Shown: positions 31,172 through 60,300 of the stretch, piece after piece
How the letters are laid out: each line of letters starts with the position of its first letter
How positions within the stretch are numbered: the first letter of the stretch is position 1
Assembly (NCBI RefSeq): GCF_964204645.1
Contig: NC_134025.1
Coordinates: 18,389,101-18,453,100, forward strand
DNA: 64,000 nt
Source: Tubulanus polymorphus
Taxonomy: Eukaryota > Animalia > Nemertea
Direction of reading: 5' to 3'
The notes under the pieces: generated by a model
Seen by the model: the letters and a program-made list of their open reading frames with translations, nothing else
The model's database searches: none
What the model was told of the DNA's origin: nothing
Program-made: the position numbers and the translations under genes

Positions 31172-31610
31172 ATTTGATTTCGGAAGTATCAGACTTACGA
31201 ACTTTCTTTTTGTATAGTAGTACACAGCTCGTTGACTTTCAAAGGCAGTAGAGTGAAGTAGAATCTGCCCTACATGCAACTGAAGCTGGTATATGACTTC
31301 TTGATCTTCTGTAGTGTATATTATACGTTTCGAATAGAGTTTTATGCCATCATTTTATCGCAGCAGCAACAAGTTGGTGCTGCCATCTATCCAATCACAT
31401 CGTGCCAATCACAGCGCTTCTCTAACCGACACGCGGCTTCCTTGGATTTCCCGTATTAGTCAAGCGAACGAGGAAGTATTTCGCAAGTTGATATATGACG
31501 TAATGCAAAAGCGCCAGTAATGATTGAAATCGCGCGTCTTGAGGCCAGGGGAGCTGGTGGTGGAAGCGTGTTCGGGAGTCACCGGACCCCTGGCAAGTGA
31601 GGATGGATGT

Positions 31611-31925
31611 TTTTCGATATTTAGATATTAACATGTTGTCCTGGTTTGAATTTTGGTTCACCAAGATCATGTGTTACAAACGCACCATACAAATTATTCC
31701 AAACAACTTCTGAATTATCTATTTTTAGCTTGTATAGGTTTCGTGCCAATACTTGAATGTTAAGAATTATTATAACCTTTAACTAAATCTTATACATCGC
31801 TTTATTTATTTGTTTCATTGGCAGTAAAATATTTCCACATTCTTGTTTTCAATGTTTTATAAAATCTTTCTATAATAGATGCTTTTTTATCTGGGTGCTA
31901 GAAAAATATTCTACACCATTATCAG
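31611..31925 (-). pseudogene. Polinton integrase fragment
   Basis: Matches 20270-20590 (KASIIERF..RMWKYFTANE..VWNNLYGAFVTHDLGEPKF). Confidence 0.8.
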
Positions 31926-32227
31926 GATCGCCAAATCTCATAATTCCCCGAATTTCATAAAAATTCGATTTCAAATTTGCCATTCCACATTAGTTTATCC
32001 CAAAAATTCTACATTTTTTTCGCAGGCGTCAAATAATTTATTGAAATTAAAAATCTTGTTATTTTAATTTTATTTTAATTAAATTATATGTTATATGTAT
32101 AAGATACATATCAATACGTATCTAATACGTATCTGATACAATAATACTTGAGACCCCATTTAATTAATTATTATTTATACAATATATTTTAGATTTCAAT
32201 ATATTTTTATGTGAATCATATTATTAT

Positions 32228-32948
32228 TTAACCACTAAATAATGACTCAGTATACGGTTCATTATTTGGATTATTGTTCCATTGCTCAATAAATTTCTTT
32301 ACTTTTTCTAACAGGTTTATATATAATTGTTGATCTAGTTTGTTAGATTTACTCATATTTTCTTTCTTTTCGAGAGGCCTTAAATTTTTCCAACTCCAAA
32401 TTAACTTCTTATTATATTCATCATTCATATTAGATTTAGATATTGGTAACACGGGGTCGATATGAAAGTTATTACCGTATTTTCTGTCATTCATTTTATC
32501 ATCGATCTGATATATATAATCCATGATTTTAAAAATTCATCTGAAAAACCAAATAAATTAGATAGTGTAGCTGAATGTTTATCTTTATTGAATAATTGTC
32601 TTAACCTAGATCTTAAACATTGTTTCAATTTAAAATTAAAATTTGATAATATTTGTTATTATATTCTGTATTATCCGCTCGCCATTGTTTTTGATACTCT
32701 CGTACATGATCACAATTATCATCTCTCCATTGTTCTAGATATTCTTGAAAATAATTCATATTATCTTTTCGATATTGTTTATTATGTACCTTTTTGCAAT
32801 TTTTTCAATAATATTGCTTGCCATCTTTTCTAATCTTATGTTTACCAAATTCTGTTAACGATTTACTTAATTCACATTTAGAACATATCTTATATATATT
32901 AACAACACTATGTGTAATATCAATAGTTTGTGATTGTTCTGCCTCCAT
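32228..32948 (-). pseudogene. HNH endonuclease, disrupted (relic B')
   Basis: HIDPVLPISK..WKNLRPLEKKENMSKSNK; start MEAEQSQTI directly after the pPolB stop. Confidence 0.8.
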
Positions 32949-32983
32949 TTATTATACAAATTTTTACTAAAATTAAGTCATAA

Positions 32984-35900
32984 TTATTTACATGATAGAA
33001 TTCTGTTCATTATCTCATTTTCTTTATCTTCTTCCTTTTTGAATTTTAAGTATTCATCTAAATTACAACCATACGCAACTGTGTGCATACCATCGTCTAA
33101 TATATACCTTTTATCATCGGAAGGGTTCAAACTAACATTTCCTATCTCTTCAATAAACAATTTGTGGTCCTCTGACCTTAGATATTTCATTTTATTTTTC
33201 CTAACTTCTTCATTAAATATACAATTGATATAATCTTTAAAATGAATATTTTTTCCACTACACTTTTGGTTATTCCATTTAACCTTTTAGCTTCAGGATC
33301 TTTAGTTTTATAACTATGCATCTTCGATCTAATACCTATGAACTCTGTCATTTCTTTTCCACCTAATTCATCTTTAAATTTACATGGAACTTTTTATATT
33401 ATCATTGTTTAACAATTCATGATTTTTAGGATAGTTGCTGAAATCAAAATGATCTTTTAATCTGTTTAAATCATCTGTTATGTTTTATCTTTAATACGTA
33501 AGGATCTGTATTTTTTATGATTAATGGGTGCCACAATTAAATGTACCATCTTCTGCTGTTAAATCATAAACATAGTCATTTGGATTGGATTTTTCAAATA
33601 TATCTCTAACTTCTTCTGTTAGTTAATTTTCTACATGCGTTGATTGAAATACATGTGGTATCATTTCTAATATAAACTACCATATCAAATCCTGATGAAT
33701 TGCATAATATATTAAATCCTGATATAGCACCTTTTCCTTTTTGTACCAAAGATATAGTTTTTGTTTTTGTATATTCTTTTGAACCATCTGCAGCATAGAA
33801 CCCAATTAAGAACCATTTTCTTAAAATTTATTTTGCATTTAATATATAATCTGGCACTATTGTTTCTTTGGTAGAAGTATTACTTTTAACTATTGCATGA
33901 ATATAGAATTCATCATTATATTTTAAAGCAAAATCTTTAGGATTATTTACATCTATTCCATAAACCTTTGTAAATTTCATAAAATCTATGATTCTAAAAA
34001 CTTTATGCGAATAAACTTCTTCACAGTTATTTTTAATTCTTTCTAATAATTTCAAATCTTGATTACATAAATACGACTAATATTTATTGCCTCCAACGTA
34101 TTTATAAACCCCGGCAGAACCATCACACATAAAAATCCTTTAATGAAATAGTTTTTCTTCTAATGTTTCTGGTTCTACGTTATAGATATTATTGATTATT
34201 TCATCAAATGACATATGATTCATTCTTTGAAAAAATCTCTTATGTAATAATTCATCCCCAATTTTTATATCAGTTGGTTTGATTTATATCACCATTTTTT
34301 TTATCAAACTATGATCTTCGGTAACATCTACGTACCCTAATTTAGTTCTAACTCTATAAATCTTTTTATTTGTTTTACGTATAATAATATTTTTTAATTT
34401 TGTCCATCCATTCTTTGTCCTAAAATCCATTAATTGTTTTCCATTTATTTGTATTAATTCCTTTTCACCATATGAAATATTAAGTTCATTTTGTTTACGT
34501 ATTATTGCGGAGAATCTTCTTATTAATATTTCTTTATTATATTTCAATAATATTGGGGTGTCTGCTGTTACAGAATCAAAATATAAGATTTTTATATGCT
34601 TTTCTCCAAAAAGTGGTTGTAAAACATTATAATAAAATTAATAAATTAATAATTTTGATATTTCTAAGACCGCTGTTCCGACATAAATTGATTTATTAGA
34701 ATTCATAGACGTTCTACGTAGTTTTACAGCAGCTAAAATTTTATCAAATATTCTGTTACCTATGAACTTAGGATATGATTGTAAATATCTTATTCTTTAA
34801 CCATTACTAACTAACTCAATATCATTTCAATTCCTAATATTTTCACACGTCTTACCATAGAATGCATTATTCATTATCTTGAAGAAATCTTTCTCAAAAT
34901 CAGTTTTTAGCTTTAGTTCATTGCGTAGTATAAAAATCTATATATTTTTGTAACCATTTAGATTGAATGACATATATTACATTATATGTACTTTTTAAGA
35001 TATCATTCCTTGTTGCATATTTTGTGTTAGTATTAATTTTTCTGTATTTTGGTAATTTGATAATTCTTCATGTGTAACAGTTTTATTTTCTGGACAGTAT
35101 GCTAGATTATTTGATTTAAATTTAATATGTTCAGGGTATTCTAAGTCCGCAACAAAGAAGTATCCAGGATCTGAATCATCTGCAATATCTAGAATTTGTT
35201 TCTTCCAATCAAATTTATCAACATTTTCATCTTGTAAAACTTCAGTTATTTCAAATACTTCATAAGGCTGTGGTTCCATCATTGCCCAACTATATAGATT
35301 ATTTGCATTTATACATAATAATTTGTAACAAGGATAATCATTTATATTAAAACAGCTATCACCTAATACACCTGAAACGCCTCCTCTTGTAGATTTTTCA
35401 AATAATAATAACTGATCTATATTTGTTAATAAATCCATTCTTATTCCTGTAAATTTTAACCCGCAGTCCCATCTTAAACCAGGACTTGAATAACAGTGGC
35501 AAGGATCGGTATTAAAATATTTTAGATTTTCATCTCTAAATCTTTCAAATATATCAGTTGATAATAATACATCTGATTTTAAATATAGTTCAAATAGTTC
35601 ACCATGATTTTTTATTTTAAAATGATACCATATTTTTATTGTTCTATTATATTCTTCATCTTTTACATATTCGAATCTTCATACATCCTAACATTGTTCC
35701 TTTGTAACCTCAGTTACATTAAAATCATTATGATTTTTATAAAAAGAATATGGTATGGCACCTTTATATCTTATTAATTGAAAATCATTATCTTTTGGAT
35801 AGTTTTGTTTCATAATTTGTATTTCGTCATCGATTATACTTTTGGATAAATTATCTAATGATCTATTTAAAAATCTATATGAGTCTATAAATCGTAAACA

Positions 35901-36166
35901 TCCAAATTGGAAAGATATATTGTTTTCAGATGTTTTAGCTAACATTTTTAATGTATAAGTTGGTATTTTTTTATTTTTATTTTTTGAATTTAATATTTCT
36001 ATTTCATTATTATAATTTCGTCTATTTTATGACATAGCCGTTTAATAGATAAATGAGCATCATACCCTAATAAATTATGAAATATAACTGGAACAAAATT
36101 AATTTTCTTAGCTTGCAAGTTACAATTCTCATGTGCTGCGCCTCTTAACTTTCCTTTCAAGTGATC
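32984..36166 (-). pseudogene. polB: Protein-primed PolB containing an intein, degenerate (relic B')
   Basis: RGAAHENCNLQAKK, FIDSYRFL, CINANNLYSWAM, KIMNNAFYGKT; YFD and TDP separated by 1065 bp. Confidence 0.9.
33510..34574 (-). mobile_element. Intein with LAGLIDADG homing endonuclease in pPolB motif C (degenerate)
   Basis: Block A SVTADTPILL; block B RVRTKLGYVDVTEDHSL; endonuclease motifs GFFMCDGSAG and WFLIGFYAADGSK; blocks F/G DYVYDLTAEDGTFNCG..PLIIKN followed by T. Confidence 0.9.
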
Positions 36167-36187
36167 AAATGATTCAAATTATTTTCA

Positions 36188-36670
36188 TCTATTATAATTT
36201 ATTCATGCATTATAAAGATTTATGGTTAACTAAAGAAAATAGAAATAATATGATATTTCAGGGTATTCAATCGGAAAACCATAATAAATTAAGATCAGGA
36301 GCTAATGACGCAATAGTAACTCGTACCACAGATAATTTGATTAAAAAGATTTATGGAAGCAAATATAAAATTCCATTAGACTTTGAATTGATAAATAACA
36401 ATGCACCTTTATATAAATACGCAATTCAAGAAGATATCATATTCGAGATAACATTTGCTCCTGTAAATGAAATTGTATTATCTAGCGTTGTTAAAGATAT
36501 GAGTTATAAATTATCGAATATATGTTTAGAATATGATACAGTAACTGATGAAAATATTTCAAGTATAATTCAAACTCAATACAATCAAGGATTTTCATTA
36601 TTATATGATTATATTGATAAATTTAAAACTGTAACTATTAATGCAAATGATGAAATTATTAATGAGAATA
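36188..36670 (+). pseudogene. Major capsid protein internal fragment (copy B)
   Basis: YNLFMHYKDLWLTKENRNN..INANDEIINEN matches the middle of 16622-17868. Confidence 0.85.
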
Positions 36671-36671
36671 C

Positions 36672-36987
36672 CGAATATGTCTATAACATTCAGTATCCAG
36701 AAATATCCTTTGTTGTATTCTTCTAAGTTCTTCATGTCAATTAAATCAGCTTGCCATTGTTGATCAATATATGAAACCATAACCTTTCTTGTTAAATAAG
36801 TTTTATCCATTTTCTTGTGGATATGATATGTTGGTTGATTTTGTAACCATGATTTCAATTCACTATATTTTATATTACCATTTTCCTTATCAGATTTAAT
36901 TTTACCCCATAATTCTGTAACGTTAGAATATGATACTTCACTTTCTGGGTTATAATATAAATCTCTTAAATATTGTTCTTTTTTCAT
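36672..36987 (-). pseudogene. Integrase N-terminal fragment (copy B)
   Basis: MKKEQYLRDLYYNPES..WQADLIDM..LNVIDIF, then truncated. Confidence 0.85.
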
Positions 36988-37338
36988 CTTATTTTAATCC
37001 ATTAATAATAATTTAGATTTAGTTTCAATGACTTTATGATTTGACTTATTTTCTGGTATGATAGGTTTATTGTCATTGGAATCATCTTTATCATCAGATT
37101 TGAATTTTGATTTATATATTACACCGGATAATATAATAATTGTGATTAACCCAATTGTAATATATAAGTAATTATTTCTTCCACTATTAGAAGAATCAGA
37201 TGGATTATCATTCGAATCAATATCAGATAATTTCTGTGATTCATTTATATCAGTTAATTTCTTTTTCTTAGCTTTTTTTAATTCTGAAGATCTTTTACCT
37301 AATTCTCTTGCCCATTTAATTTCTTTTTCTTAACTCCA

Positions 37339-37935
37339 TCACTCATTTATTTTAGTTAATTTTTGTTCTGATTCATTTTCTGTTTCGACGTTTGGTTGTA
37401 GTACATCTGTTTCGTTCTTACCTGATTTATATTCCATAGGTTTGATATTCGAAAATGTTATGACACCAGTAGGAATTAATGTCATAACCGATCCTAATTG
37501 AAATGAAGCATAACCAACCCATTTTTGTAATTCAGTCATAACTAAGTAGTCATTTTTCAAATCACTATATAATTTATTTTCATCATTAATTGGTATTAAC
37601 TGGTTACATAACTTAGAATAACATTTGACAATACCATCTGAAATATAATCATTTATTCTAGCTAATCTAGCTTCTTCATAAATCTTAAAATATTTTATTA
37701 CTTTATCCGGTTTCATAGAGTCTAGTTCTTGAAAAGTAATGATTCTATTTAAAAACTCATTAGTTTTTCCACCGGCAATCAATAGTTCTAGATGATGCTT
37801 ACAATATAAATAGTATTCATAATCAATATTACAATTAACTTGAGCACAATTAGTTACAACTGTATCTTTATTATCACTTATACCCAAATCATCTAATGTC
37901 TTTTCAATATCAATACTATTCTTACTCGATTTCAA
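37339..37935 (-). pseudogene. MSKKSS-family protein, start lost (copy B)
   Basis: Homologous to 21425-22033. Confidence 0.72.
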
Positions 37936-38214
37936 AAAAAATATTATAAGTATTATAAAATGATACTAGTATCTCTTTAGATTAATACTAGATAGTTAAA
38001 GGTAAAGAATTTTAGTATTAGTTATTGTTTTTTTAGTATTTTTTATTTGTGATATAAAGTATTCTTTTTTGAAAAGAAAATATTAAAAAATATAATAGAA
38101 TTCACAAGCTAGTTGAAGTTATTGTTTTTTAAATACTTTTTATTTAAAATCTATTTGATATCTCACTACTTTTGTTTATCTATTAGGAGCAGTAATTATA
38201 ACTGTCCAGATAAG

Positions 38215-38889
38215 TCATTTCGGATCCTTGATATCAAATTCCTCAACGTATTGTTCATTATTTGGATTATTGTTCCATTGATCAATAAATTTCTTTGCCT
38301 TTGTTAACTGTTCTAAATATAACTTTAAATCTAGTTTATTAGATTTAATTATGTTTTCCTTCTTTTCTAAAGGTCTTAAATTCTTCCAATTCCAAATAAG
38401 TTTTTTATTGTATTCATCATTCATGTTAAATTTAGATATTGGTAACACGTGATCAATATGGTAATAATCCCCATAATTATCTATATTCATTTTATCATCG
38501 AATTGAAATATAATCCATGATTTGAGAAATTCATCTGAACAACCCAATAAATTAGATAGTGTTTCTGAATGTGTTTCTTTGTTGAATAATTGTGTTAATC
38601 TAGATCTTAAGCATTGTTTCAATCTAAAATTAAGATCTGTTTGATATCTTTCTCTCATATATTCTGCCATATAATAATTATAATGTTCTATATTATCTTC
38701 TCGATATTGTTTAGTATATAGTTTAGTGCAAGTTTTACAGCAATATTGAAAACCATCTTTGCTAATCTTACGCTTACTAAATTCTGTTAATGATTTATCT
38801 AATTCACACTTAGAACACTTCTTGTAATATATATTTATAACACCAGTGTTATTTGTAATATTGATAATTTGTGGCTGTTCTGGTTCCAT
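38215..38889 (-). CDS. HNH endonuclease, intact (copy B)
   Basis: KKCSKC..CKTC; [27 protein letters not shown]. Confidence 0.85.
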   Translation of the reverse strand: MEPEQPQIINITNNTGVINIYYKKCSKCELDKSLTEFSKRKISKDGFQYCCKTCTKLYTKQYREDNIEHYNYYMAEYMRERYQTDLNFRLKQCLRSRLTQLFNKETHSETLSNLLGCSDEFLKSWIIFQFDDKMNIDNYGDYYHIDHVLPISKFNMNDEYNKKLIWNWKNLRPLEKKENIIKSNKLDLKLYLEQLTKAKKFIDQWNNNPNNEQYVEEFDIKDPK

Positions 38890-39021
38890 TTATTATATGT
38901 ATTTTTTACTAAATTGGTTAATATTTTAGAATCCTCTTCCATTTCTTCGACCAACGTCATCCTTTTTCATTCCTCGCTGCTTTTGATAAGTTGTTTCGAT
39001 TCCTTGATATCTAAATCATAC

Positions 39022-39345
39022 CACTGAGCAAACCGCGCATTCGTGCGCGCTTTTGATCAATGCGCATGCGCTAATCATAATTATATATAATTATGTAAAT
39101 AGAAACAACCGACATGAAATATCTAAACGCGTTCGCATTAGGCAAACCGCGCATTCATGCGCGCTTTTGCTTAATGCGCATGCGTTAATCATAATTATAT
39201 ATTCATTATGTAAATAGAAACGACCGAACATGAAATATCTGAATCATACAACTGAGCAAACCGCGCATTCGTGCGCGGTTTTGCTCAATGCGCATGCGCT
39301 AATCCTAATTATATATTCATTCTGAATAGAAACGACCGAACATAA
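39022..39345. repeat. Three-copy ~115-bp array of hairpin units (copy B)
   Basis: gcaaaccgcgcattcgtgcgcg(c/g)ttttg..aatgcgcatgcgctaatcataattatat. Confidence 0.85.
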
Positions 39346-40133
39346 AAATTCACCAAACAGATTTACACAATACATTATACAAGTTGTTCGGCCGTTTCTT
39401 CCAATACATCATTCGATTTCTATAAATACAATTTATAATTACAAACATTTTTTCAATTGCTGGTTAATATTTAACTACATCAACAAATGTTAAACTTAAT
39501 CATTGGAGTCTTAATGTTTTTGAAATTCTTATATAGTTTCTTCGTCGATCTTTTGGCGATTCTTGTGTTTCTTGTGCTAATTTCTATTGGTTCGATGTCC
39601 ATTGCTGTTGATTCCTCAGTCAGAAAGAGTATCTTGAGTTTCTCTATCACTTCTTGATGCGTATGGCGTTTTATTAATCTAAAAGATATTAGCGGTAACT
39701 CTAGCTATCTAAAAGATATACTTAATACACTTAAATATATCTAAAGGTTTCATATTTAATAGCCTCAATAACTACAAAAAACAGTACTTACATTTAGATT
39801 TAGAATTGTAAACTATAAACTCCTAATTTCGTTTCGAGAGATAGAATATCCTGAGCACAATGTTACAGCGTATGTTCATTTCCGGGGCGATTTCTAGAAT
39901 GACACGTCGTTGATTATGCCACGTCATGTGGTTCCGGCGCGCCTTTTCTAGAATATTCTACACGTTTCTGATTATGACGTGTCATCTCTATTCAGAGTTC
40001 CAGCACACCTTTCTAGAATTTTCTCTGCACGTTTGTAATAATGAGTCATAAGTCTCGGCGTCATAGTAACAGCTGTAACAGCTGTGAATTTATAGATTTA
40101 TTCCATAGCTCTTTACATTGAATGTATATAGGT

Positions 40134-40385
40134 TCAAATAGAATCATGTTCTAGTATAAACATCGGATCCTTGATATCAAATTCCTCAACGTATTGTTCA
40201 TTATTTGGATCATTATTCCATAATTCAATAAATTTCTTTGCCTTTGTTAACTGTTCTGAATATAACTGTAAATATTCAAGTTTCAATTTATTCTCTAAAT
40301 GTGTTTTAGATTTATTGTGTCTTGCTTTTTGGGATTTATCTACATTGATATTACATGTTGGACAGTAGTACTTATTTGCTTCCAT
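40134..40385 (-). CDS. Chimeric ORF: pPolB N-terminal zinc finger fused to HNH C-terminal tail
   Basis: MEANKYYCPTCNINVDKSQKARHNKSKTHLENKLKLEY matches the start of 45746; LQLYSEQLTKAKKFI..EEFDIKDP matches the end of 38215-38889. Confidence 0.6.
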   Translation of the reverse strand: MEANKYYCPTCNINVDKSQKARHNKSKTHLENKLKLEYLQLYSEQLTKAKKFIELWNNDPNNEQYVEEFDIKDPMFILEHDSI

Positions 40386-40465
40386 TTTAATACTAAATTT
40401 TTTATTAAAATTGATTTTAGAAGTTCAATGATTTAAATGTTATTCATTTATATGAATATTTTAAG

Positions 40466-40869
40466 AGTAATAGGGGTAATGGGCTTTCATATTAAAGGTT
40501 GAATGGTCGAGTTCATTAAAAACAAATATTAAAAGTAATTTAAAACGATAATATATTTTCATAACCGTGTGTATTTCAGTTGAATAATAGAATAATTATT
40601 ATTATTTGAATATATTTGATTATATGAATTTGTGTATTGTAAATAAATCAATTGGTCGCGGAGCGGAGCGGTAGCGAAGTGGAGCGACCAATTGATTTAA
40701 TACAATATGCTTTTTAAATTATTGATATCTTAGAATAAATATTTAGTTTTAATATAAAATGCACACGGTTATGAAAATATATTATAGTTTTTAATTACTT
40801 TTAATGTTTTGTTTTTTAATGAGCTCGACCGTTCGACCTTTGGTATGAAAGCCCATTACCCCTATTACT
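40466..40869. repeat. Terminal fold-back palindrome of copy B (404 bp)
   Basis: agtaataggggtaatgggctttcata at 40466 and its reverse complement ending at 40869; apex aaatcaattggtcgc-ggagcggagcggtagcgaagtgga-gcgaccaattgattt. Confidence 0.92.
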
Positions 40870-45035: not shown

Positions 45036-45702
45036 AGTAATAGGGGTTTAGTTGGTTCAGGCCAAAGGTCGAACGGTCGAGCTCATTAAAAAACAAATAT
45101 TAAAAGTAATTTAAAACTATAATATATTTTCATAGCCGTGTGTATTTTATATTATAACTAAATATTTATTCTAAGATATTAATAATTTAAATTTTAAAAG
45201 CATATTTAAAAGCATAAAAGCATATTTTAAAAGCATAAAAGCATATTTCAGCATAAAAGCATAAAAGCATATTGGTCGCTCCGCTTCGCTACCGCTCCGC
45301 TCCGCGACCAATTGATTTATTTACAATACACAAATTCATATAATCAAATATATTCAAATAATAATAATTATTCTATTATTTAACTAAAATACACACGGCT
45401 ATGAAAATATATTATAGTTTTAAATTACTTTTAATATTTGTTTTTAATGAACTCGACCATTCAACCTTTAACCTGAACCAACTAAACCCCTATTACTCTT
45501 AAAATATTTATATATATATATGTATAACATATAAATTGATAGATTATTCAATATAAAAGTAACGAGTAATTAACGAGCTCTTATAGAATAGATAGATAGA
45601 TATATTTTAAACATTATTTCAATATTTATATTTGTATGAGTTAGATTTTTAAACATTAAAAGTGTTAGTAAAGTGTGATTGAAATAATACATATTTAAAT
45701 CA
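45036..45702 (+). repeat. Left TIR of copy C, with terminal palindrome 45036-45497
   Basis: Reverse complement of 62491-63071; 45036-45148 also recurs inverted at ~45385-45497; (AAAAGCAT)n expansion at ~45196-45272. Confidence 0.93.
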
Positions 45703-45720
45703 TTGAACTTCTAAAATCAA

Positions 45721-45748
45721 TTTTAATAAAAAATTTAGTATTAAAATG
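45721..45748 (+). promoter_or_regulatory. A-run + TAAA(A)TG start motif (replication-gene class; pPolB example)
   Basis: ttttaataaaaaatttagtatTAAAATG; the same TTTA(A/G)TAAAAA-N8-10-TAAA(A)TG pattern precedes 5743, 49827, 17918, 56485 and the HNH genes. Confidence 0.6.
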
Positions 45749-48700
45749 GAAGCAAATAAGTACTACTGTCCAACATGTAATATCAATTTAGATAAATCCC
45801 AAAAATCAAGACACAATAACACTAAAACACATTTAGAGAATAAATTGAAATTAGAATATAAAGATGATATATTAGAAACTAAATTAGAAGAATTAAAGAA
45901 TGAAAAAGAAACCTACAAATGTGATACAAATGTGATACATCATTCATTCAGTGATAAAAGATATTATAAAGAACATTTAAAATCTAAAAGTCATATTGGA
46001 AATATGAATAATGATATTTTAGGTGAGGATTATTTTGATAATGACAATGATAAGAAACATAAGACAATTAAAAGAATAAGAAATAAATTAAACAATAAAA
46101 GACCATACATGGAAGATGTAAGAAATTATATTAATTCATTAGATAATAAAAAAGATATAGAGATGACCGAAGCATTTAAAAGTGATATTGGTCCAGCAGC
46201 TATTGAGTTTAAATTTCATAAAGGAAAAACATTAGAAGAAAATAAAAAACATTTAGAAAATATGAAAAATATTATAAAAATAATTACTGTTATGTTGAAT
46301 ACCCTAAAATTAGTATATCTTCTAAAGTAAAGTTTATAAAATCTGAAGATAAACTAATATATAATATAAATTCTCATTCACAACATATTATATCTAAACA
46401 ACATATAGATGAAAAATTAGATAAATGTTATAATGAAGTAAAAACTAAAATAGAAGAGAAATATTTTGAAGGATCTGGTTTAATATTTGATGAAATAATA
46501 TTTATGACTTTACATGTTTATAACACAAAATATAATAAGTTAACTAAATCGAAACCAATAGATGAAAATAATGTATCATATGATAAAGAACCAGATATTG
46601 AAGCGTCGAGTTATATCAAATTACCATTTAAAAACTAATGCTGTTATAAATGTACAAAATGAAGATGATAAATGTTTTCTATGGGCAATAATTAGTTGTT
46701 TACACCCAGTTGAAGATTATAATAAACATACTTATAGATTAACTCATTATAAACCATTTGAAAATAATTATAAGATAGATAATTATCCTGTTAGAATTAA
46801 AAATATCCCAAAAATAAAAAGAGATAATAATCTAAGAATAAATGTATTTGATTTAATCAAATTGCCAAATACAAAAGGTAACAATATAAAACATTATACA
46901 TTAGAACCTTTATATCTATCAAAAGATTATGATTCAAACGATGTTATAGATACATTATATTATGAGAATCATTATATGTGGATTAAACAAATCGATTTAT
47001 TTTTAAATCAGAAAATGATTTTGATAATAAAATATATATATGTAGAAAATGTTTACATAAATTCAGAACTGAAAGTGCATTATTAAATCATAAACAATTA
47101 TGTGAAAATCATGATTATTGTAAATTAGTTTTACCAAATGAAAAGGATAAAATATTAGAATTCACAAAATATGATTACAAAAATAAAGTACCATTTGTTA
47201 TATATGGAGATTTTGATTCATTAAATAAAGAACTAACTGATCAAGATAGAAAAGAAATATATTATAAAAGAAAGAAATCAAATTCTAATGAAAATGATTT
47301 TTCAGATGAACCACCAAAAACAAATACAATTAAAAACATTCATCAATCAGCTGCTGCTTTCGGGTTATATATAAAATCTGATTATCCAGAACAAATTGAA
47401 AGTGAATATTATGATTACAGAAATGAAAATGTTATCAATCATTTTTGTGACTTATTAATTGAATATGAAATAAGATTTAGTAAATTATTGAATATAAATA
47501 TAGAAATTATAATGACAGAAGAAGATAAAGAAGCATTTGAGTTTGCAGATAAATGTTATTATTGTGAAAAGATATTTAATTATAAAGATAAAAAAGTAAG
47601 AGACCATGATCATTTGAATGGAAAGTTTAGAGGTGCCGCACATGAGAATTGTAACTTACAAGCTAAGAAAATTAACTTTGTTCCAGTTATATTTCATAAT
47701 CTATCAGGATATGATGCACATTTATTCATCAAACAGTTATGCCATAAAATAGAAGAAATTAATAATGAAATAGAAAGATTGAATTCAAATAGATCAAAAG
47801 ATAAAATACCAACTTATAAATTTAAAATGTTAGCTAGAACATCTGAGAATTATATATCATTCCAATTTGGTTGCCTAAGATTTATAGATTCATATAGATT
47901 TTTAGGTAGTTCATTAGATAACTTATCAAAATCATTAGTTGATGATGAATTAAAAATATTAAAACAACACTATCCAAATAATGATGATTTTAAATTAATG
48001 AGATATAAAGGCGCAATTCCATATTCTTTCTATAAAAATCATAATGATTTCAATATAACTGAATTATTAAAAGAACAATTCTATGATGAATTAAAAAATG
48101 AATATGTTAAAGATGAAGTATATAATAGAACATTGAATATTTGGAATCATTTCAAAATAGGAAATCATGGACAATTAGTAGATTCATATCTAAAATCAGA
48201 TGTATTATTATAAACTGATATATTCGAAAGGTTTAGAGATGTAAACCTAAAATATTTTAACATTGATCCATGTCATTGTTATTCTAGTCCAGGTTTAACA
48301 TGGGATTGTGGATTAAAATTTACAGATATAAAAATGGATTTGTTAACAAATATAGATCAATTACTATCATTTGAAAAATCTATAAGAGGAGGAGTTTCGG
48401 GTGTATTAGGGGATAGATATTTCAATGTAAATGATAACCCTGGATATAAATTATTATATATAGATGCAAATAATCTTTATGGTTGGGCAATGATGGAACC
48501 AAAACCTTATGGAGTATTTGAAATAAGTGAAGTTTTACAACATGAAAATAATGACAAATTTGATTGGAAGAAAAGAATTCTAGATATTGCAGATGATTCA
48601 GATACTGGTTACTTTTTTGTTGTAGATTTAGAATATCCTGAACATATTAAATTTAAATCTAGAAATCTAGCATACTGTCCCGAACATAAAACTGTAACTC

Positions 48701-49797
48701 ATGAAGAATTATCAAATTATCAAAAAAGAATTAAACCTGAAAATCATATTCATACAGAAAAGTTAATGGTAACTCAGGAAGATAAATATAATTATGTAGT
48801 ACATTATAGAATGTTGAAGTTTTATTTGAATCAAGGAATGATTCTAAAAAAAGTACATAGATATATTTCATTTAGCCAATCTAAGTGGTTAGAAAAATAT
48901 ATAGATTTTAACACCAAACAGAGAACTGAAGCTAAAACTGATTTCGAGAAAGATTTCTTCAAGTTAATGAACAATGCATTCTGTGGTAAGACTTGTGAAA
49001 ATATTACAAACAGAAATGATATTGAGTTAGTTAGTAATGGCAAAAGGATAAGGCATTTACAAACATATCCTAAATTTATAGGTAACAGAATATTTGATGA
49101 AAATTTAGCTGCAGTTAAAATGAGAAGAACATCAATGAAATTTAATAAACCAATCTATGTTGGTGCTTCAGTTTTAGAAATCTCAAAGCTATTAATGTAT
49201 GAATTCTATTATAATGTATTACAACCTCATTTTGGAGAAAAGCATATAGAAATCTTATATTTTGATACTGACAGTTACATATTAAAGATAAAAACTAATA
49301 ACATAACTGATGATTTAAAAACATTAAAACATCATTTTGATTTCAGTAACTATCCTAAAGATCATGAATTGTTTAGCAATGATAATGAAAAAGTTCCTGG
49401 TAAATTCAAAGATGAATTAGGTGGTGAAGAAATGATTGAATTCATTGGTATTAGATCTAAAATGTATTCATATAAAACTAAAGAACATGAAGCTAAAAAG
49501 TTAAAAGGAATAACCAAAAGTGCAGTAGAAAAGAATATTCATTTCAAAGATTATATCAATTGTATATTCAAAGAAGAAGTTAGAAAACATAAAATGAGAT
49601 GTTTAAGATCTGAAGATCATGAAATGTTTATTGAAGAGATAGAGAAGATAAGTCTAAACCCATTTAATGATAAAAGATATATTCTGGATGATGGAATTCG
49701 TACAGTTGCTTATGGTTGTAATTTAGATGAATACTTAAAATTTAAAAGAGAAGAAACAAAAGAGAACGAGATAATGAAAAGAATTCTAACGTGTTAA
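45746..49797 (+). pseudogene. polB: Full-length protein-primed PolB (ZnF, putative terminal protein, vOTU-like, exonuclease with endonuclease VII insert, polymerase), several frameshifts/stops
   Basis: YYCPTC..H..H; NEDDKCFLWAI..HYMWIK; IYGDFDS; CYYC..VRDHDHLNGKFRGAAHENCN; FHNLSGYDAH; YIDANNLYG, KLMNNAFCGK, YFDTDS. Confidence 0.94.
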
Positions 49798-49826
49798 TCA
49801 AATTTTAATAAAAATATGTATTATAA

Positions 49827-50180
49827 ATGGAGAGTAAACAAGCACACAGTGAGAACAACAAATTATTTCCAGATAGAATAAAAGATACTTCAAATGTCAA
49901 ATCAGTAGATTATAAATTTAAGAAGTTAAAAGAATTAATAATCCATAAGAAATATCTAATTACAAATATTGATACAGTTACTAACAAATATGGAGATAAA
50001 TTAGTTATACACTTAGAATATGAAGGATTAAAAGGAAATACATATAAATTCAGAACATATTTACCAGATAGATTTCGTAGATTATCAAGTGAAGATCTAG
50101 AAGAATTATGTTCTGGAGATTTCTATTTCGTATACAAAGGTAAGAATGAAAAAGGGCATCATGAAATAGATTTCGAATAA
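49827..50180 (+). CDS. Conserved 117-aa protein (copy C)
   Basis: Near-identical to 5743-6096. Confidence 0.7.
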   Translation: MESKQAHSENNKLFPDRIKDTSNVKSVDYKFKKLKELIIHKKYLITNIDTVTNKYGDKLVIHLEYEGLKGNTYKFRTYLPDRFRRLSSEDLEELCSGDFYFVYKGKNEKGHHEIDFE

Positions 50181-50197
50181 GAAAATATGTAAAATAA

Positions 50198-50959
50198 ATG
50201 GTAGAATTAAAAGAATACAGAATATTTGTTGATTCTAGAAGACTTACAAATTATAAATCACATAATTTACTAGTACAATTAGATAGAGAATTTAAGAATT
50301 GTGTTGATTTAAAATAAGTAAATATAAGTTTACGTAATTCTTTTTATAATATAACGAATAAAACTATTGAACATAGAGCCTTTTTAATTTTTGATAAAGG
50401 TAAAAATGAATGGTCTTATATATATCTAAAACCGGGGTTATATAATTTAGATACATTTGCACAAGAAATTAATAGAAAAGCCTGGCACAAATTAGGTAGT
50501 AGTTCTGGGTTTAGTATTAGATTTTTAAAAAGTGATAGTTCTGATAGAATAAAGATAAGGTTGTCTAATAGTGAAAAACATAAATTTATGGTAAAAAAAC
50601 CTAGAGCTAAACTGTTAGGAATTCTTCCAGATAGATCTTTTAAAAATATTGATGCTGTTACACCAAACTTAATACCTTACACACATTTTTTTATTTATTG
50701 CAATTTAATCGATCCTACAAAAAAATTCGAAGCAACTAAAGATATAACTTGTAATTCTGGTTTACTAAACATTTTACCATTGAAGAATGTTAAAGAATTT
50801 GGAACGCAAATAAATTATAATTTAACAGAATGTGATTTCAAACCATGCATTCCTCGTTTTAATAATTTTAGATTAGAAATTAGAAATCATAATGGATACT
50901 TAATTGATTTAAATAATTTCCCTGTAATTTATGAATTAGTTATAAGATGTAAAAAGTAA
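50198..50959 (+). pseudogene. Penton/minor capsid protein, frameshifted (copy C)
   Basis: HFFIYCNLI..FRLEIRNHNGYLIDLNNFPVIYELVI. Confidence 0.72.
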
Positions 50960-50976
50960 TTTTTTTCACTATACAA

Positions 50977-51318
50977 ATGAATTATACTGTTGGACCGAGT
51001 ATATGTTTTGGGTTTGATTTTAAACATGGTAAAGAAATGAGAATTAAACTAAATGATGTAATTACTGATATAAAATGTAAATCATTTAACAATGCATCAA
51101 TGATTAATAAAGAAAATTGTAATATAGAAAAAGTAATTGATTTAATTAAATCACCTTTAGAATATTATGAATTAAATGAAGATGGAATTATTGATGATAT
51201 TAAAAACATATTAACCAAAATATATGATAATCATAAAAGTAGTAATGAAATAAATGTTGAATTAATCATAAATAAGTTAACTAAATATTTTGAAGATAGT
51301 AATTTTTTTGATAAATAA
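50977..51318 (+). CDS. Hypothetical protein (113 aa)
   Basis: Homolog of 6882-7238. Confidence 0.68.
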   Translation: MNYTVGPSICFGFDFKHGKEMRIKLNDVITDIKCKSFNNASMINKENCNIEKVIDLIKSPLEYYELNEDGIIDDIKNILTKIYDNHKSSNEINVELIINKLTKYFEDSNFFDK

Positions 51319-51540
51319 ATGAGTGATAATAAGTGGATAATAACTGAATTATATAATGGCGCATTACTATCAGTTGGAACTGTTGGTTATTCAATGGTAT
51401 TGAAAAAAGTATTTAAAATGGGAAGTGTTAATGTTGATAGATTTGATATTAATGATATTTTAAAATTAACATTAGCAGTTACTTTATCTAATTTAACTAT
51501 TGATTATTTGGAAAAACAAAAATATATTCCTCCTATATAA
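51319..51540 (+). CDS. Small hydrophobic protein (73 aa)
   Basis: Homolog of 7239-7460. Confidence 0.75.
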   Translation: MSDNKWIITELYNGALLSVGTVGYSMVLKKVFKMGSVNVDRFDINDILKLTLAVTLSNLTIDYLEKQKYIPPI

Positions 51541-51564
51541 ATGCATAATTATTTTACTAAATAA

Positions 51565-51985
51565 ATGGCTTCTGCAGTTATAACTATTATAGGATCGGCA
51601 ATTGTTAACGCTTTAGCATTTACTGGTGGTGGATATTTATTTAAGCATATTGATAAAAATGGATCATTAACAGAACAAAAAAGACATAATTTAGCATTAG
51701 AAAAATATAATAAAGAAGCGGAAGAATATAGAGAAAAGAGGCAAAACTATATGGATTATATTAACAAGGAATTATATGATCAGAAGATTTCACATAGAGA
51801 TTTTCAATCAGTTGATGATGCAATGAGTTTATATAACGGTAACAAATAAAGAAAAATTACATCTATACAAACCTAAATTATCAGATTATTATACCCCAAG
51901 TAATGAACAGAAGAAATATGAAATAATATGGATTTTAGGCGGAACAGTTATTGTTATATTTGTAGCGTATAGATGTACTAATTAG
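51565..51985 (+). pseudogene. MASA-type membrane protein, frameshifted
   Basis: Homolog of 7486-7908 with a frameshift near 51838. Confidence 0.72.
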
Positions 51986-52006
51986 TAATTTTTTTTTGCT
52001 AAATAA

Positions 52007-52424
52007 ATGGATGATAATATTGATATTATTCCTCATGATATAAATAAAACTATATTAAAAACATATTTAGAAAAACAAATATTATAATTTGAAAGTGACT
52101 TAAAGATAAAAAAGAAAGAATATTTAAAAAATAAAAATTATATATTATCTTATTATTAGTGGTTCAGTTACAATTAGTTCTGTAATAACATTTTTAGCAA
52201 TATTCAGTCCATTAACACCTTTAGCTATATCAATTGGCGTATTAGGATTAAGTTCAAGTGTTTTAACTGGTATAAGTTCAAAATTAAATATAAAAAGTAA
52301 TAAAGAAAAAATTAAAACTAATATAAAAGAAATTAAAAAATACACTAGATTATATAATAAGTTTAAATGGCCATATAACAGTTGAAGAACAAGATAAATT
52401 ATTAAAAGAACTAGTTAATTATTA
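52007..52424 (+). pseudogene. Two-TM membrane protein, frameshifted
   Basis: Homolog of 7927-8359. Confidence 0.62.
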
Positions 52425-52441
52425 ATTCTTTAATTATATAA

Positions 52442-53763
52442 ATGGTAGATAGTTTTCCAAAAGCTTTCCAATATAATAAATCAATTAAATATAATATTCC
52501 TGCAATAGATTTTAATAAAGATATTTCATATAGAAATGAAGTTTTAAATTCAGTAATTGATTTATATATTTATGTCACTGAAAGTAATAATTTTCATGTA
52601 AAGATGTAAAATATATTTCATGTGTATACAATTAATTTTAAAAATTTAAATGAGGCAAAACAATGGTTATTAAAATCTAATATGAAGTATTGGCAGAACC
52701 AATTAAATTATGCTGTTTATTGTGCAACAACAGGATGTGGAATTAGTTGGAATGATCATTTAAACAAACCAAGTTTACCATTGATGTTATCACTTTTTAG
52801 ATTTCATACTTATTTTCAAATAGAATTAATATTAGATGAATTAGAATGTCCTTTACCAGGTTCAAAATATTTTAAAGAATTGAATAATAAAATTAATTTT
52901 TCTAAGTTTTATAAAATATGTAATGAATTTAATATTAATTCAAATAAAGATTTTAGAGCAAAAATTGGAACAATGGGTGGATTAGGAATATTATATACTA
53001 AAGAATTTGGAAAAATAATGACAAATTCAGATATAAGAACACTAAATTGGAATGAATTACCAAAATATTATAATAATATACAACAACAAAACAATAATGG
53101 TTGGGTTTATTTCATTTTAGAAAATAGTGAAGGTTTTACTAAAGCTGGAATACAAAGAATAAATCAATCTATTAGAAATTATTTGATATGTATTTTAGGT
53201 GCGCAAGTTGAAACAAGATCACCAATAGTTGGAAATGATAACACTTCATTCGATGCGCAGAAACAATTCAAAGTATTATTTGAAGATTCCATTCATAATG
53301 ATAAAAATAGATCGATTCCAGAAAACATTGTAAGATATCAAAATTATTTAGATAAATAACATATTAGATTAAATTATTGTATAGGCCCTAATCTATTAAT
53401 TATTTCTAATGATTTAGTATTAAAGATGGGAAATATAATTGGTTATAATAATCTAATTAAAACTGCGACAATAAATAATTCATTTTGATTGAATGATATT
53501 AATAAAAAAGATAATTACTGCTCCAAAATTAATGGAAGGTGAAAAAAATAAAAAAACACATTCAATCAACTGAAACTAAAAATATTAAATTGGATAATGA
53601 TTCTAAAATAAAAGATTACAATACATCAGAAAATATTAAAACTGATAATATTCAACATGATATAATTAAAACTAATGATGATAATAAATCCCATGAAAAT
53701 ACTAAATTTGCTTTAACTTGTATAGGAATTGTAATCGGAGGAATATTATATTTTAAATTTTAA
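52442..53763 (+). pseudogene. YWQNQLN/CATTGCG protein with C-terminal TM, several stops
   Basis: Homolog of 8376-9687. Confidence 0.72.
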
Positions 53764-53779
53764 TTTTTTTATTATATAA

Positions 53780-55189
53780 ATGGATGTAGAAGGTGGAGAA
53801 GATATTGGAATGGAAGGCACGGGAAATAATAATGAAGGATATATTGATGATGATTATAATGATGCTGAAACTAATATTGATGATAATTCATCAGCGCGTA
53901 ATTCTAATTTAGCAGAGAGTGGTTCTAATGCCCCATCAACAGATGAATTTGATAGAACTAGATCGAGAATAAATCCTGAAAATGAAAATCAAGGTTTATT
54001 AAAGCAAAATTTAGAATATAATGAATATATTTATAATTTCAAACATGTATTTGAAAAATCTGGATATAATATCAATGATAGAGGCGCCAGACAAAATTTT
54101 TTAGACGGTGAATATTATTATAAATTGAAAGATGATTATTATATTGATATCTCTTATAAAAAACAAGAAGAAATATTAGCAGAATCAACTTTGCTTAAGT
54201 TAGACCTATCTAGAATTAAAAGAATAAGAAATAGTGATGAAATAGAAGATGTAACACAAGAAGAAATTATTAAAAATGAATGAGTATTTGAACAAAGAAT
54301 TAATAAATTATTTGAAACAATCGATAATAATTTAGAACCAAAAACAACTTCTGGTAAACTTAAATCAAATAAAGTTCCAATTGAAAAACTTTTACCAAAT
54401 GGATTACTTGATGCAACAGATCAAGAATTAGAAGATTTAGATATATTTTCTGATAAAGCAATTAGAGAAATTATTAGTATAAGACTTGCATCTGATAAAA
54501 TTGCACATGATAAAAGTATAAGAGATTTTAAAATTAGAACTTTGGAAAAAGAATTAACTAATGCAAATAAAGAAATAGAACAACTAAAGTCTGATTAAGA
54601 TCATCAAGTAATTGATGAAATAGAATATAGGCAAAAAGAATTACGTTTAGAAAAAGAAATTAATAATTTAAAAGATAATTTAGAAGTACAGAAAGAAGAA
54701 ATTAAATTATTATTAAAATCACATGATTATAATATTAATAGATTAAAAGGTATTTTTAAAGATTTGTTGATAAAACCAAATTCTGAAATATCATTGAAAG
54801 ATAGTATAAAATTATTATTTAAATTAGAAGGAATAACAATTTTTTCAATTCTAACAGCTGTAACTATGTTATTTACAACAATTGGTTAAGCAATATCAAA
54901 TTCTTTGAAATCTACTCCTACTCCCAATAAACCGGATAAACCCCCAGATAATAATAATTCTATACAAGATAAAGTTAAAGATGGTTTAAAGAAATTAGCA
55001 AAATATTTATGGGAGCTATCAAAAAAATCTGCTGCAGCACTGCCCGGAGTTATTGCATCAATTATTGGTTTTATATTGAAATCTGCTGGGAATATTATTA
55101 ACCTTGCTGCTGAACATATTATTTTATTTTTAATTACAGTTGTAAGTGCTATTATTTTTGGGTTAGTAAACATGATAAAAAATAAATAA
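53780..55189 (+). pseudogene. Acidic/coiled-coil/multi-TM protein, several stops
   Basis: Uninterrupted homolog of 9688-16601. Confidence 0.75.
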
Positions 55190-55209
55190 TTAATTTTTTT
55201 GTTAAATAA

Positions 55210-56452
55210 ATGAGTGGGAGTTATATCAATCCTTCTAAGAATCATAGAATATCTAATGCTATTAAAGCAGAAAGATCACATCATATAATTACTCATAACC
55301 CTTCTAATATAAATCCTGATGAAACTTTATATGTTAGAATCCCTAGATTAACACAAAATACTTTTTATGTTCCAAATAGTATTTATTTATCAGCCGATAT
55401 AAAAGTAATCGGTAATAATAATAATTATGTTGTCGATAATGTTGGGAGGTATTTGATTAAAAAATTAACAATAAAGATTGGTCCAGAAACAGTTTTCTCA
55501 TTAGATGATTATAATTTATTTATGCATTATAATGATTTATGGTTAACTAAAGAAAATAGAAATAATATGATATTTCAAGGCATCCAATCAGAAAACCAAA
55601 ATAAATTAAGATCAGAAGCTAATAGCGCAATATTAACTAATGCTATAGATAAATTGATAAAAAGTATATATGGAAGCAAATATAAAATTCCATTAGACTT
55701 TGAATTGATAAATAATAATGCGCCTTTATATAAATACGCAATTCAAGAAGATGTTATATTCGAAATAACATTTGCTCCTGTAAATGAAATTGTAATATCT
55801 AGCGTTAATAAAGATGTGGGTTATAAATTATCGAATATATGTTTAGAATATGATACAGTAACTGATGAAAATATTTCAAGTATAATTCAAACTCAATACA
55901 ATCAAGGATTTTCATTATTATATGATTATAATGATAAATTTAAAACCGTAACTATCAATGCAAATGATGAAATAATTAATGAGAATATTAACTTCCCAAG
56001 AAGATCTATTAAAGGTATATTAATATTTTTTACCATTGCAACATATACTAATGGTGCAATAAATGTTGATAATTATTATAATCCTGAAATAACAAAAGTA
56101 GAAATAACTATCGAAGGAATAGCAAATAAAATATTTTGTCAAGGAATGAGAATGATTGATCAATGGCCAGAAATTAGAAAACATTTTATGAATGAAAAAG
56201 TAAAATCATCTGAAAATTGTAATATTAATCAAATTGATTATTATACCGGTAATAAATATGCATTATGGTTAGATTTTAGAACAACAGAGGATAATTCATT
56301 ACATGGTTCTGGAAAAAAACTACAGAACACTAAAGATGGAATACAATTATTCATGACAAAGAATAAAGGAATCAAAAATTTCAAAATGCACATTTATATC
56401 TGACGCGCAATTAGATATTGTAAATTCTCAATTAAATAGTGTTATGTATTAG
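55210..56452 (+). CDS. Major capsid protein (copy C), frameshift in the last ~17 codons
   Basis: 397-aa ORF 55210-56403, near-identical to copy A MCP. Confidence 0.82.
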
Positions 56453-56484
56453 AATTTTAACTTTAATAAAAATTTATATAATAA

Positions 56485-57335
56485 ATGGAAGGAGGTAAAG
56501 TATATAAACATATTCCATACATCGATTCACATGAAAATAATGATGGTTTATATTATGTAATACCTTGTAATATAGCTTTGATATTTGATCCTATTTTCAA
56601 AATTTATAAAACTAAACTAATAGAAATCGATAATAATAAAAGTGGTGTTGTTGATAATTTAAGTAGTAATTGATAATAATGTAATACCTTCTACATCTAA
56701 TAAAGTAATACCTTCTACAGCTAATAATGGAATACCTTCTACATCTAATAATGTAATACCTTCTACATCTAATAATGTAATACCTTCTACATCAAATAAT
56801 GAAATAATATTAAATATCAGTGAAAATAGAAATTATTGTGATTCTTGTAAAGGTGAATTTTCAAATGCTCCATCAAATTGGAATAAACATATGAATACAA
56901 AGGTACATATTACTAATGTAATAGAACGTGTTGGTTTATGAGAATTTATAGAACACCCATATATATATATATGTTACAAAGTTTGTTTCAAATAAAAAAG
57001 TAAATGGTAAAGAATTATAAGAACATTTATTAGGTGAATTTTTATCTAAGGAACCTAGTAATGATAAATTAGATTTATCTGCTGCTAATAAAATATTATG
57101 ATCAAACATTGTAAATGAAATATTAGGAGCAAACACTAAGAAAGATGATAATGAAAATATAGTTACAAATATTGATATTAAAGATAATGTGGATACATTT
57201 TTTACGAAAGATAAAGTAGTAACTATTGATGATGCGGTAAAAAGGATGAATAAGTATAACAATAATGAAGAATTTGAAGAAGATTCGGTAGAGAGTTTGA
57301 ATAAATTGTTAGGGTCTGATAGTGAAAGTGATTAA
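56485..57335 (+). pseudogene. Variable-slot protein with PSTSNNVI repeats and zinc finger
   Basis: MEGG start as in 17918; 24-bp repeats taataccttctacatctaataatg; YCDSCKGEF..WNKHMNTKVH. Confidence 0.62.
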
Positions 57336-57529
57336 GATATTAATTATATTTAACTCAAATAATAATATTGGTTGAAAATTGTATAAAATAATAGTAAATA
57401 AAAAAGGGGGTTTTAAGTATTTAAGGTATCTAATAGGGTATCTAATACATAGTAGGTATTAGGGTATCTAATAGGGTATCAGGTATTAGGGTATCTAATA
57501 GGGCATCTAATACATAGGTATATAAATAG

Positions 57530-58141
57530 TTATTTTATAAATTTATATTCATAGGGAAATTGAAACCTAAGTAATAATTTTGAACCTTTATTATTCTTTG
57601 ATTTATTCATATATTCATCATATAATTCAGTAGGTATAATATCATTTTCTTCCAATGATTGTTGCTTAGATTTTTTAGATTTGTTATAAAATAAAACTAG
57701 AAATCTTATATTATCCCTAAAGTCTTTAACAATTGAATTATATTTTTGATTTAAAACCCATGTTGTTATCCCAAAATGTCTCCCAGAGAAAGCTAAATAA
57801 CATAACTCACTTTCTCTAACTTTTGAATCATGTAAATTTGCACAATCATCTATAATGAATAATGTATTTGATCCTTTATAAGTATCAATTGCTATTTTAA
57901 TACAATTATCTAAATTTTCTTTTACTGTTTTAGGATCTAATATAATAAACTTTTTCATCTTAACTATATCTCTATTATATGTTTTATTCATTTCATAAGT
58001 AGGACAAAATAATATTATATTATCAAAATGATTCTTATAAATAGTTTCTAACAAGTCTAATATGAAATGTGTTTTACCACAGTTGGATGCCCCAGTTATT
58101 AACATATTATGCGGTTCAAATATAAATAAATCTTTATTCAT
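57530..58141 (-). CDS. A32-like packaging ATPase, intact (copy C)
   Basis: GASNCGKT, FIIDD, SGRHFGITTWVLNQ. Confidence 0.92.
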   Translation of the reverse strand: MNKDLFIFEPHNMLITGASNCGKTHFILDLLETIYKNHFDNIILFCPTYEMNKTYNRDIVKMKKFIILDPKTVKENLDNCIKIAIDTYKGSNTLFIIDDCANLHDSKVRESELCYLAFSGRHFGITTWVLNQKYNSIVKDFRDNIRFLVLFYNKSKKSKQQSLEENDIIPTELYDEYMNKSKNNKGSKLLLRFQFPYEYKFIK

Positions 58142-59226: not shown

Positions 59227-59240
59227 CTTATTTCAATCCA

Positions 59241-60199: not shown

Positions 60200-60300
60200 T
60201 TATATTAGAGAAATTTAATGAAAAAAATATTATAAGTATTATAAAATGATACCAGTATCTCTTTAGATTAATACTAGCTTAGTTAAAGGTAAAGAATTTT

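Follow-up and report, generated by a model that had tools for sequence, protein, structure and literature searches.

A decayed LAGLIDADG intein in a Polinton protein-primed DNA polymerase, from a Polinton-specific clade with a likely giant-virus PolB origin

The window (the whole 64,000-nt stretch of DNA that was analysed) contains three Polinton copies, designated A, B, and C, and an insert that splits the polymerase gene of copy B.

31609..40869: Polinton copy B, rearranged, with one terminal repeat (40431-40869)
45036..63071, plus strand: Polinton copy C, 18 kb, with both termini, an A32 ATPase, a capsid-like ORF, and an intein-free pPolB
5171..5194, plus strand: intein-free site of copy A, YFDTDS, cut point after 5182
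49255..49278, plus strand: intein-free site of copy C, YFDTDS, cut point after 49266
34575..36199, minus strand: N-extein, the exonuclease/palm part of the copy B pPolB; the N-terminal ~650 aa are missing here
33510..34574, minus strand: intein coding region, pol-c allele, decayed, 1065 bp (from translation, profiles, and stop count)
32984..33509, minus strand: C-extein, starting with Thr-Asp, frameshifted

Judged by their sequences, the copies are Polinton/Maverick elements, with a protein-primed B-family DNA polymerase (pPolB), an integrase, a packaging ATPase, a capsid gene, and terminal repeats. Profiles matched rve plus Chromo and Pox_A32 in copy A, and Pox_A32 and, weakly, Capsid_N (E 0.008) in copy C; the pPolB ORFs of the window gave no PF03175 match by themselves, and they align to P0002, a polymerase that does match PF03175. 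The 6-bp flanks of copy C differ at one of six bases, and copy B has one end only. Copy B retains only fragments of the integrase and capsid genes and is a rearranged composite, with the pPolB inverted relative to these fragments; a short remnant of the polymerase start (40272-40449) is found next to its terminal repeat, and an RNase H with a Cauli_VI N-terminal domain and a PHD finger (30188-31354) adjoins its broken end. Copy A is interrupted by a non-LTR retrotransposon (endonuclease, RT, and zf-RVT; 11200-16470). Each of the Polinton termini at 45036-45497, 62692-63071, and 40466-40869 is a long imperfect palindrome (~380-460 nt) with the terminal motif repeated in inverted orientation at its inner end; the terminus at 45036-45497 folds at -120 kcal/mol (z -21.7), and the palindromes could form hairpin ends during replication. 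An ORF with a zinc ribbon and an HNH-like domain (weak HNH_4 match, E 0.05) recurs in all three copies, twice in copy B (38215-38889, 23858-24526, 60447-61115, and 32228-32971), and possibly encodes a free-standing homing endonuclease. No tRNA or Rfam match was found in the window.

Six-frame translation places the 1065-bp insert on the minus strand at 34574-33510, where it splits YFD/TD of the copy B pPolB: the polymerase reads KHIKILYFD to 34575, the insert runs from SVTADTP at 34574 to IIKN at 33510, and the polymerase continues with TD. The insert length is a multiple of three, the insertion is codon-exact and in frame, and its flanks together correspond to the YFDTDS that copies A and C have without interruption; the DNA of these two copies is 84-87% identical to that of copy B across 330 bp on the upstream side and 430 bp on the downstream side. 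Over the 45 nt upstream of the site, copies A and C differ from copy B at four and three positions, respectively; in a co-conversion comparison beside the site, the upstream flanks are nearly identical and the downstream differences are confounded by decay. The first-pass annotation had described an insert at this position with its intein motifs, uninterrupted sites in copies A and C, flanks belonging to a single YFDTDS motif, and a frameshifted copy, and all of this was recovered in the translations. As to decay, five in-frame stops fall within the first 324 codons of the intein, its block F lies in a frame other than that of blocks A-E and G, the N-extein has eight stops in 459 codons, and Pro replaces Ser at position +3. 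The intein and the polymerase of copy B are dead. The blocks that can still be read within the insert are the following:

34545..34574, minus strand: block A, starting with Ser1 (SVTADTP); Ser1 in 54 of 54 viral alignment rows
34303..34349, minus strand: block B region with Thr and His (RTKLGYVDVTEDHSL); VDVTEDHS in 54 of 54 viral rows
34110..34151, minus strand: first LAGLIDADG helix (block C), with its acidic residue, interrupted by a stop
33783..33818, minus strand: second LAGLIDADG helix (block E, GFYAADG); LAGLIDADG_3 match, residues 254-302
33530..33577, minus strand: block F (YVYDL...FNCG), in a different frame; 58% match to P0270, E 3e-18
33510..33527, minus strand: block G, ending in Asn, with a penultimate Lys as in the Mimivirus intein

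Aligned with its relatives, the window intein has Ser1, the block B Thr and His, two LAGLIDADG helices, the terminal Asn, and Thr+1, and on these sequence features the insert is a canonical class 1 LAGLIDADG intein at the pol-c site (motif C) of a Polinton pPolB. Searched with X in place of stops, it scored 27.5 bits against TIGR01445 (intein_Nterm; cut-off 24.5), so that the Hint and LAGLIDADG profile check proposed in the first-pass annotation came out in favor of an intein at this model, with Pfam Intein_splicing (E 1e-4) and LAGLIDADG_3 (E 1.2e-3) matching the decayed copy below their Pfam cut-offs. Among open-frame carriers of the same intein, P0204 lies above the TIGR01445 cut-off and P0002 and P0003 lie just below; P0204 also passes the Pfam cut-offs for Intein_splicing, Hom_end, and LAGLIDADG_3, in addition to DNA_pol_B_2, and, when the window copy and the intact carriers are compared, it alone is above the cut-off for PF14890. 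The window intein is 54% identical to that of P0002 (E 5e-87). With a 64-row family profile, inteins and LAGLIDADG enzymes of solved structure were matched (PI-PkoII, 2.8e-17; TFIIB mini-intein, 4.6e-11; I-DmoI; PI-SceI); with the window intein alone as query, no PDB sequence match was obtained at E 1, and a single-sequence structure model of the P0002 intein was of unusable quality (pLDDT 40). The penultimate intein residue is Lys in the window copy and P0003, Ser in P0002, and His in P0204. A spliceosomal intron was rejected as the identity of the insert; a hedgehog-type Hint domain was rejected because the insert contains an endonuclease and has canonical junctions on either side, and identity with the HNH/VSR inserts already known from pPolBs was likewise rejected.

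Intact intein-positive pPolBs, which the first-pass annotation had suggested looking for in relatives, do exist: three full-length, open-frame pPolBs (P0002, P0003, and P0204) carry the same intein at the same site, with the junctions YGD/S..N/TDS, YLD/S..N/TDS, and YMD/S..N/TDS, respectively. Across the family, YGD, YLD, YMD, or YQD precedes Ser1, and TDS or TDA follows the Asn. Among the best 120 of the 215 longer proteins found with the window intein, the top two were the open-frame pPolBs P0002 (54%) and P0003 (40%), 113 had PF00136 (RNA-primed PolB, including Mimivirus), and five were topoisomerase II proteins. A set of ~750-aa proteins (P0018, P0021, P0024, P0036, P0044, P0050, P0052, P0055, P0059, and P0066) starts ~65 residues before PolB motif C and carries a ~420-aa pol-c intein; these may correspond to the second half of viral PolB genes that are split. 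With the intein-free copy C as query, 5511 relatives were found, and two of the best 120 full-length ones (P0002 and P0204) have the intein. P0204 represents a cluster of 136 members whose longest contig is 657 kb, and the open-frame carriers come from JGI and ENA sources. Fragments P0137, P0138, P0139, P0270 (69% identity with the window copy across 106 residues), P0272, P0336, and P0384 extend the family; P0272, P0336, and P0384 were placed in the pPolB intein clade by tree only. In ESM Atlas, P0204 retrieved PolB and intein clusters that are mostly Nucleocytoviricota, with scores all <0.9, which we take as a lead only. No confirmed locus was obtained for P0204 in viral contigs or for P0002 in metagenome contigs, and the degenerate pattern RTKLGxVDVTEDH, which does match the window, had zero matches in viral and metagenome contigs. 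P0153, a close intein-free relative among Polinton pPolBs, bears the UniRef label Sulfurimonas sp., probably a binning contaminant.

With a profile built from 119 Endonuclease_7-type pPolB N-exteins, P0002 and P0204 were the sole intein-bearing matches, to which a C-extein profile added P0270 and P0138. P0003, which we take to carry the motif of the VSR-type pPolB class, has an intein 44-46% identical to those of P0002 and P0204; its N-extein gave no BLAST or profile match to theirs and still matches PF03175. The kinship of the P0003 intein, set beside an N-extein with no such match, requires a jump between polymerase classes. Between P0002 and P0204, identity is 47% for the intein and 44% for the N-extein. 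The three intact carriers share 42-49% identity in the endonuclease, as against 54-63% in the N-terminal splicing region and 27-31% in the linker next to the endonuclease, and they retain the two acidic residues of the LAGLIDADG motifs.

Contigs assembled from three runs of one organism in one study, which may be the window's own source, also contain the insert. The 3′ junction is spanned by one contig that matches the window exactly (33201-33806) and the 5′ junction by two diverged ones, and further diverged intein copies are present. In X1, several distinct pieces cover the intein region at a depth (38-57) roughly that of window-identical contigs (31); in X2, one 428-nt intein piece has a depth of 323 versus 5.4-6.9 for window-identical pieces (~50-60x), a depth that does not equal copy number. 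We read the depth as a rough sign of a multi-copy, intein-bearing subfamily. A one-off junk insertion of giant-virus DNA into a dead element, or a chimera created in assembly, would suit the rearranged and decayed state of copy B and the GC content of the intein (25%), which falls within the range of viral inteins (23-52%). However, the position is codon-exact, open-frame pPolB carriers come from both JGI and ENA, contigs bridge both junctions, and the GC content of the intein equals that of the exteins (25% and 28%), and we regard such an artifact as extremely improbable.

Separate trees of intein and extein (quick searches with SH-aLRT support only), also proposed in the first-pass annotation, place the pPolB inteins in a single clade and scatter their carriers among empty polymerases. 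The first intein tree kept 89 of 126 rows, dropping 18 badly delimited ones and those outside 310-450 aa; its seven pPolB inteins are a single clade (SH-aLRT 100), which falls within a group from RNA-primed PolBs (starred, 96). The second (78 rows, rooted on the topoisomerase inteins) groups all 11 pPolB-type inteins (starred, 100) inside groups with starred support of 99 and 98. The nearest non-Polinton relatives are giant-virus-type PolB inteins, so the giant-virus kinship claimed in the first-pass annotation stands, but the direction of transfer implied there does not stand as established: the nesting (SH-aLRT 96-99) favors movement from giant virus to Polinton, and an AU test on 46 of the 78 rows, with the pPolB inteins forced out to join the topoisomerase ones, did not reject that arrangement (p=0.16). 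An intein older than the split, leaving sister lineages, or one moved the other way with Polintons as donor, would be compatible with this test, with the long stem branch of the pPolB clade (0.41-0.55), and with the occurrence of the same allele in archaea (Ogata 2005, PMC549080, in the text available). Both forms of this history appear improbable to us, as two starred branches enclose the pPolB clade in each of the intein trees, and the RNA-primed PolB relatives are far more numerous and diverse (113 of the best 120), with all 67 distinct inteins from 80 viral loci at YGD/TDS. We are fairly confident that the insert is a decayed LAGLIDADG intein in motif C of a Polinton pPolB, from a Polinton-specific clade that likely has a single giant-virus PolB origin and is predicted to persist by splicing and by homing into intein-free Polinton copies.

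The N-extein tree (53 rows, in which 50 of 118 empty polymerases were kept) separates the carriers copy B, P0002, and P0204 by starred branches, each with intein-free sisters. Copy B groups with the empty copy C and three empty relatives (starred, 100), P0002 with five empty relatives (starred, 97), and P0204 with two near-identical empty ones (starred, 99) at a distance of 0.02-0.04; the presence of the intein needs three changes on this tree. All three carriers nevertheless fall in one 19-row Endonuclease_7-type clade (starred, 99), the intein tree mirrors their branching, and intein and N-extein identities are similar (47% and 44% between P0002 and P0204). Because the intein and polymerase branching agree within this clade, one ancient gain followed by vertical inheritance and repeated precise loss, with little or no present-day homing among Polintons, fits the branching as well as repeated homing does. 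Such a history would nonetheless need many exact losses (16 of the 19 rows are empty, some of them nearly identical to a carrier) and a jump to account for P0003 in another pPolB class, and the endonuclease is conserved well above the linker, which is unexpected once homing stops; we consider it unlikely, though it deserves attention. The alternative that we advance tentatively, with slightly more doubt than conviction, is a living homing intein family carried by Polintons in animal genomes, with a giant-virus origin, a second jump between pPolB classes, and ongoing conversion.

Under the known chemistry of class 1 inteins, Ser1, the block B Thr and His, the terminal Asn, and Thr+1 of intact members are predicted to excise the insert and rejoin Y-x-D to T-D-S; since excision would rejoin motif C, the polymerase should work only after splicing. 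On the standard homing model, the endonuclease would then cleave the intein-free site of a second Polinton present in that cell, and the intein would be copied into it during repair; filled and empty Polinton copies ~85% alike in one genome suit ordinary homing of this kind. Across the gap between virus and Polinton, ordinary homing is unlikely, since, over 18 bases, the empty Polinton site agrees with 35 viral sites at just 11.5 bases on average and at 14 in the best case, chiefly at the positions fixed by the Asp-Thr-Asp codons. Ogata 2005 (PMC549080) judged it implausible that an intein homes directly from one PolB gene to a distant one. The first capture was probably a rare off-target event, poor in homology and perhaps enabled by the D-T-D codons common to both sites, during replication of a Polinton and a large DNA virus in one cell. 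A second, similar jump would have crossed between two pPolB classes, and intein-bearing Polintons may then have multiplied in this host genome before the window copy decayed. The same intein family occurs in topoisomerase II, between Asp and Thr-Asp-Gly, as a clade of its own (P0080, P0088, P0094, P0101, and P0117), and this placement between Asp and Thr-Asp suggests that the family can make non-allelic jumps. A capture implies both genomes in one cell; the shared cells and the carriage into the host germline put forward in the first-pass annotation are inferences. The crossing into a protein-primed polymerase put forward there is favored, with an adjustment of its age and place, since the intein belongs to an old clade of at least 11 sequences: the four longest pPolB-type inteins are 40-54% identical across two very different pPolB classes, which dates the crossing to long ago, and it may have taken place outside this host or outside animals altogether.

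The host is likely an animal, as suggested by the neighboring retroelements. The LINE inserted in copy A has mostly eukaryotic Atlas neighbors, in which Chordata are the most frequent group at ranks 1 and 3 and bacteria predominate at rank 2, and an element with RT and GIY-YIG domains, presumably Penelope-like, flanks the Polinton copies. A protist or fungal host, with the intein in the endogenous virus of a microbial eukaryote, would recall the endogenous viral PolBs with inteins reported from algae and a labyrinthulomycete in the main text of Gallot-Lavallee 2023 (PMC10710043). The LINE neighbors, the RT plus GIY-YIG element together with several non-LTR elements around the Polinton copies, and the rve-chromo integrase and A32 ATPase, which fit animal Polintons, all speak against this, and we think a non-animal source of the window quite improbable.

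Reviews describe inteins as absent from metazoan genomes (PMC8529194, available text), and a clade of inteins in Polinton pPolBs breaks this pattern, but in an endogenous virus and not in a host gene. A family at one site across protein-primed and RNA-primed PolBs and across two pPolB classes offers a clean test case for non-allelic intein spread, and with filled as well as empty alleles present in one genome, genomic data alone can test for homing. The findings are also relevant to the questions of a virus phase in animal Polintons and of their encounters with large DNA viruses: an active site blocked by the intein up to the moment of splicing, together with a conserved endonuclease, would imply an expressed polymerase with access to empty alleles. 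If the proposal of a living homing family is true, it would be a molecular trace of Polintons having replicated in cells shared with large DNA viruses, and would amount to a natural gene drive between transposon copies.

The first-pass annotation was not aware of such an intein described for Polintons, and the literature searched agrees: no Hint/LAGLIDADG intein in a pPolB appears in the full-text literature covered, a scope outside which lie supplements, Repbase, InBase, and most subscription journals. Specifically, the available texts of PMC12220804, PMC11071308, PMC3671162, PMC10748475, PMC10710043, PMC5718144, PMC13768754, PMC5784728, 10.1101/299784, PMC8529194, PMC549080, PMC10583447, and PMC8502044 contain no Hint/LAGLIDADG intein in a protein-primed polymerase. 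A survey of eukaryotic viruses reports inteins only in NCLDV families and unclassified viruses (PMC5784728, available text). The placement of this known intein allele in pPolB is thus apparently undescribed. HNH and VSR nuclease domains have been described within Polinton pPolBs (Jeong 2023, PMC10748475), and “intein invasions” have been proposed, citing that work, for homing-endonuclease domains in pPolB (Krupovic 2024, PMC11071308). These inserts, as presented in the texts available, resemble the present one as nuclease domains within pPolB but are HNH/VSR domains and not Hint plus LAGLIDADG, and it is these that the 2024 suggestion concerns; the word “intein” is absent from the main text of Jeong 2023, and LAGLIDADG is absent from the available text of both papers. 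In the window's family, an Endonuclease_7 domain lies elsewhere in pPolB, apart from the Hint plus LAGLIDADG insert.

Endogenous viral genes for PolB with inteins in Klebsormidium, Tetrabaena, and Hondaea, and inteins in Anaeramoeba, are described in the main text of Gallot-Lavallee 2023 (PMC10710043), where “animal” and “metazoa” are absent. These cases share with ours virus-borne inteins on nuclear scaffolds and virus-linked non-allelic spread, but their hosts are algae and protists and their polymerases are described as viral-like DNA polymerases. The elements themselves resemble the Polintons/Mavericks (adintoviruses) of Starrett 2021 (PMC8502044), whose main text describes a pPolB, an rve integrase, an A32 ATPase, a capsid-like ORF, terminal inverted repeats, and 6-bp flanks, and mentions no intein. 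The closest known inteins are those in the PolBs of Mimivirus and other Nucleocytoviricota, which share the motif C site YGD/TDS (pol-c, as defined by Ogata, Raoult, and Claverie 2005, PMC549080, available text), Ser1, Asn, and Thr+1, and two LAGLIDADG motifs. The Mimivirus intein is also similar in length (351 versus 346-355 aa) and has the penultimate Lys, and it is 35% identical to the window copy and 37-39% identical to the intact pPolB carriers. Unlike in Mimivirus, the intein here sits in a protein-primed PolB (PF03175) in which BLAST shows no similarity to the N-extein of Mimivirus, the residues before the intein are YFD, YGD, YLD, YMD, or YQD, and the carrier is an integrating Polinton whose inteins form a clade of their own.
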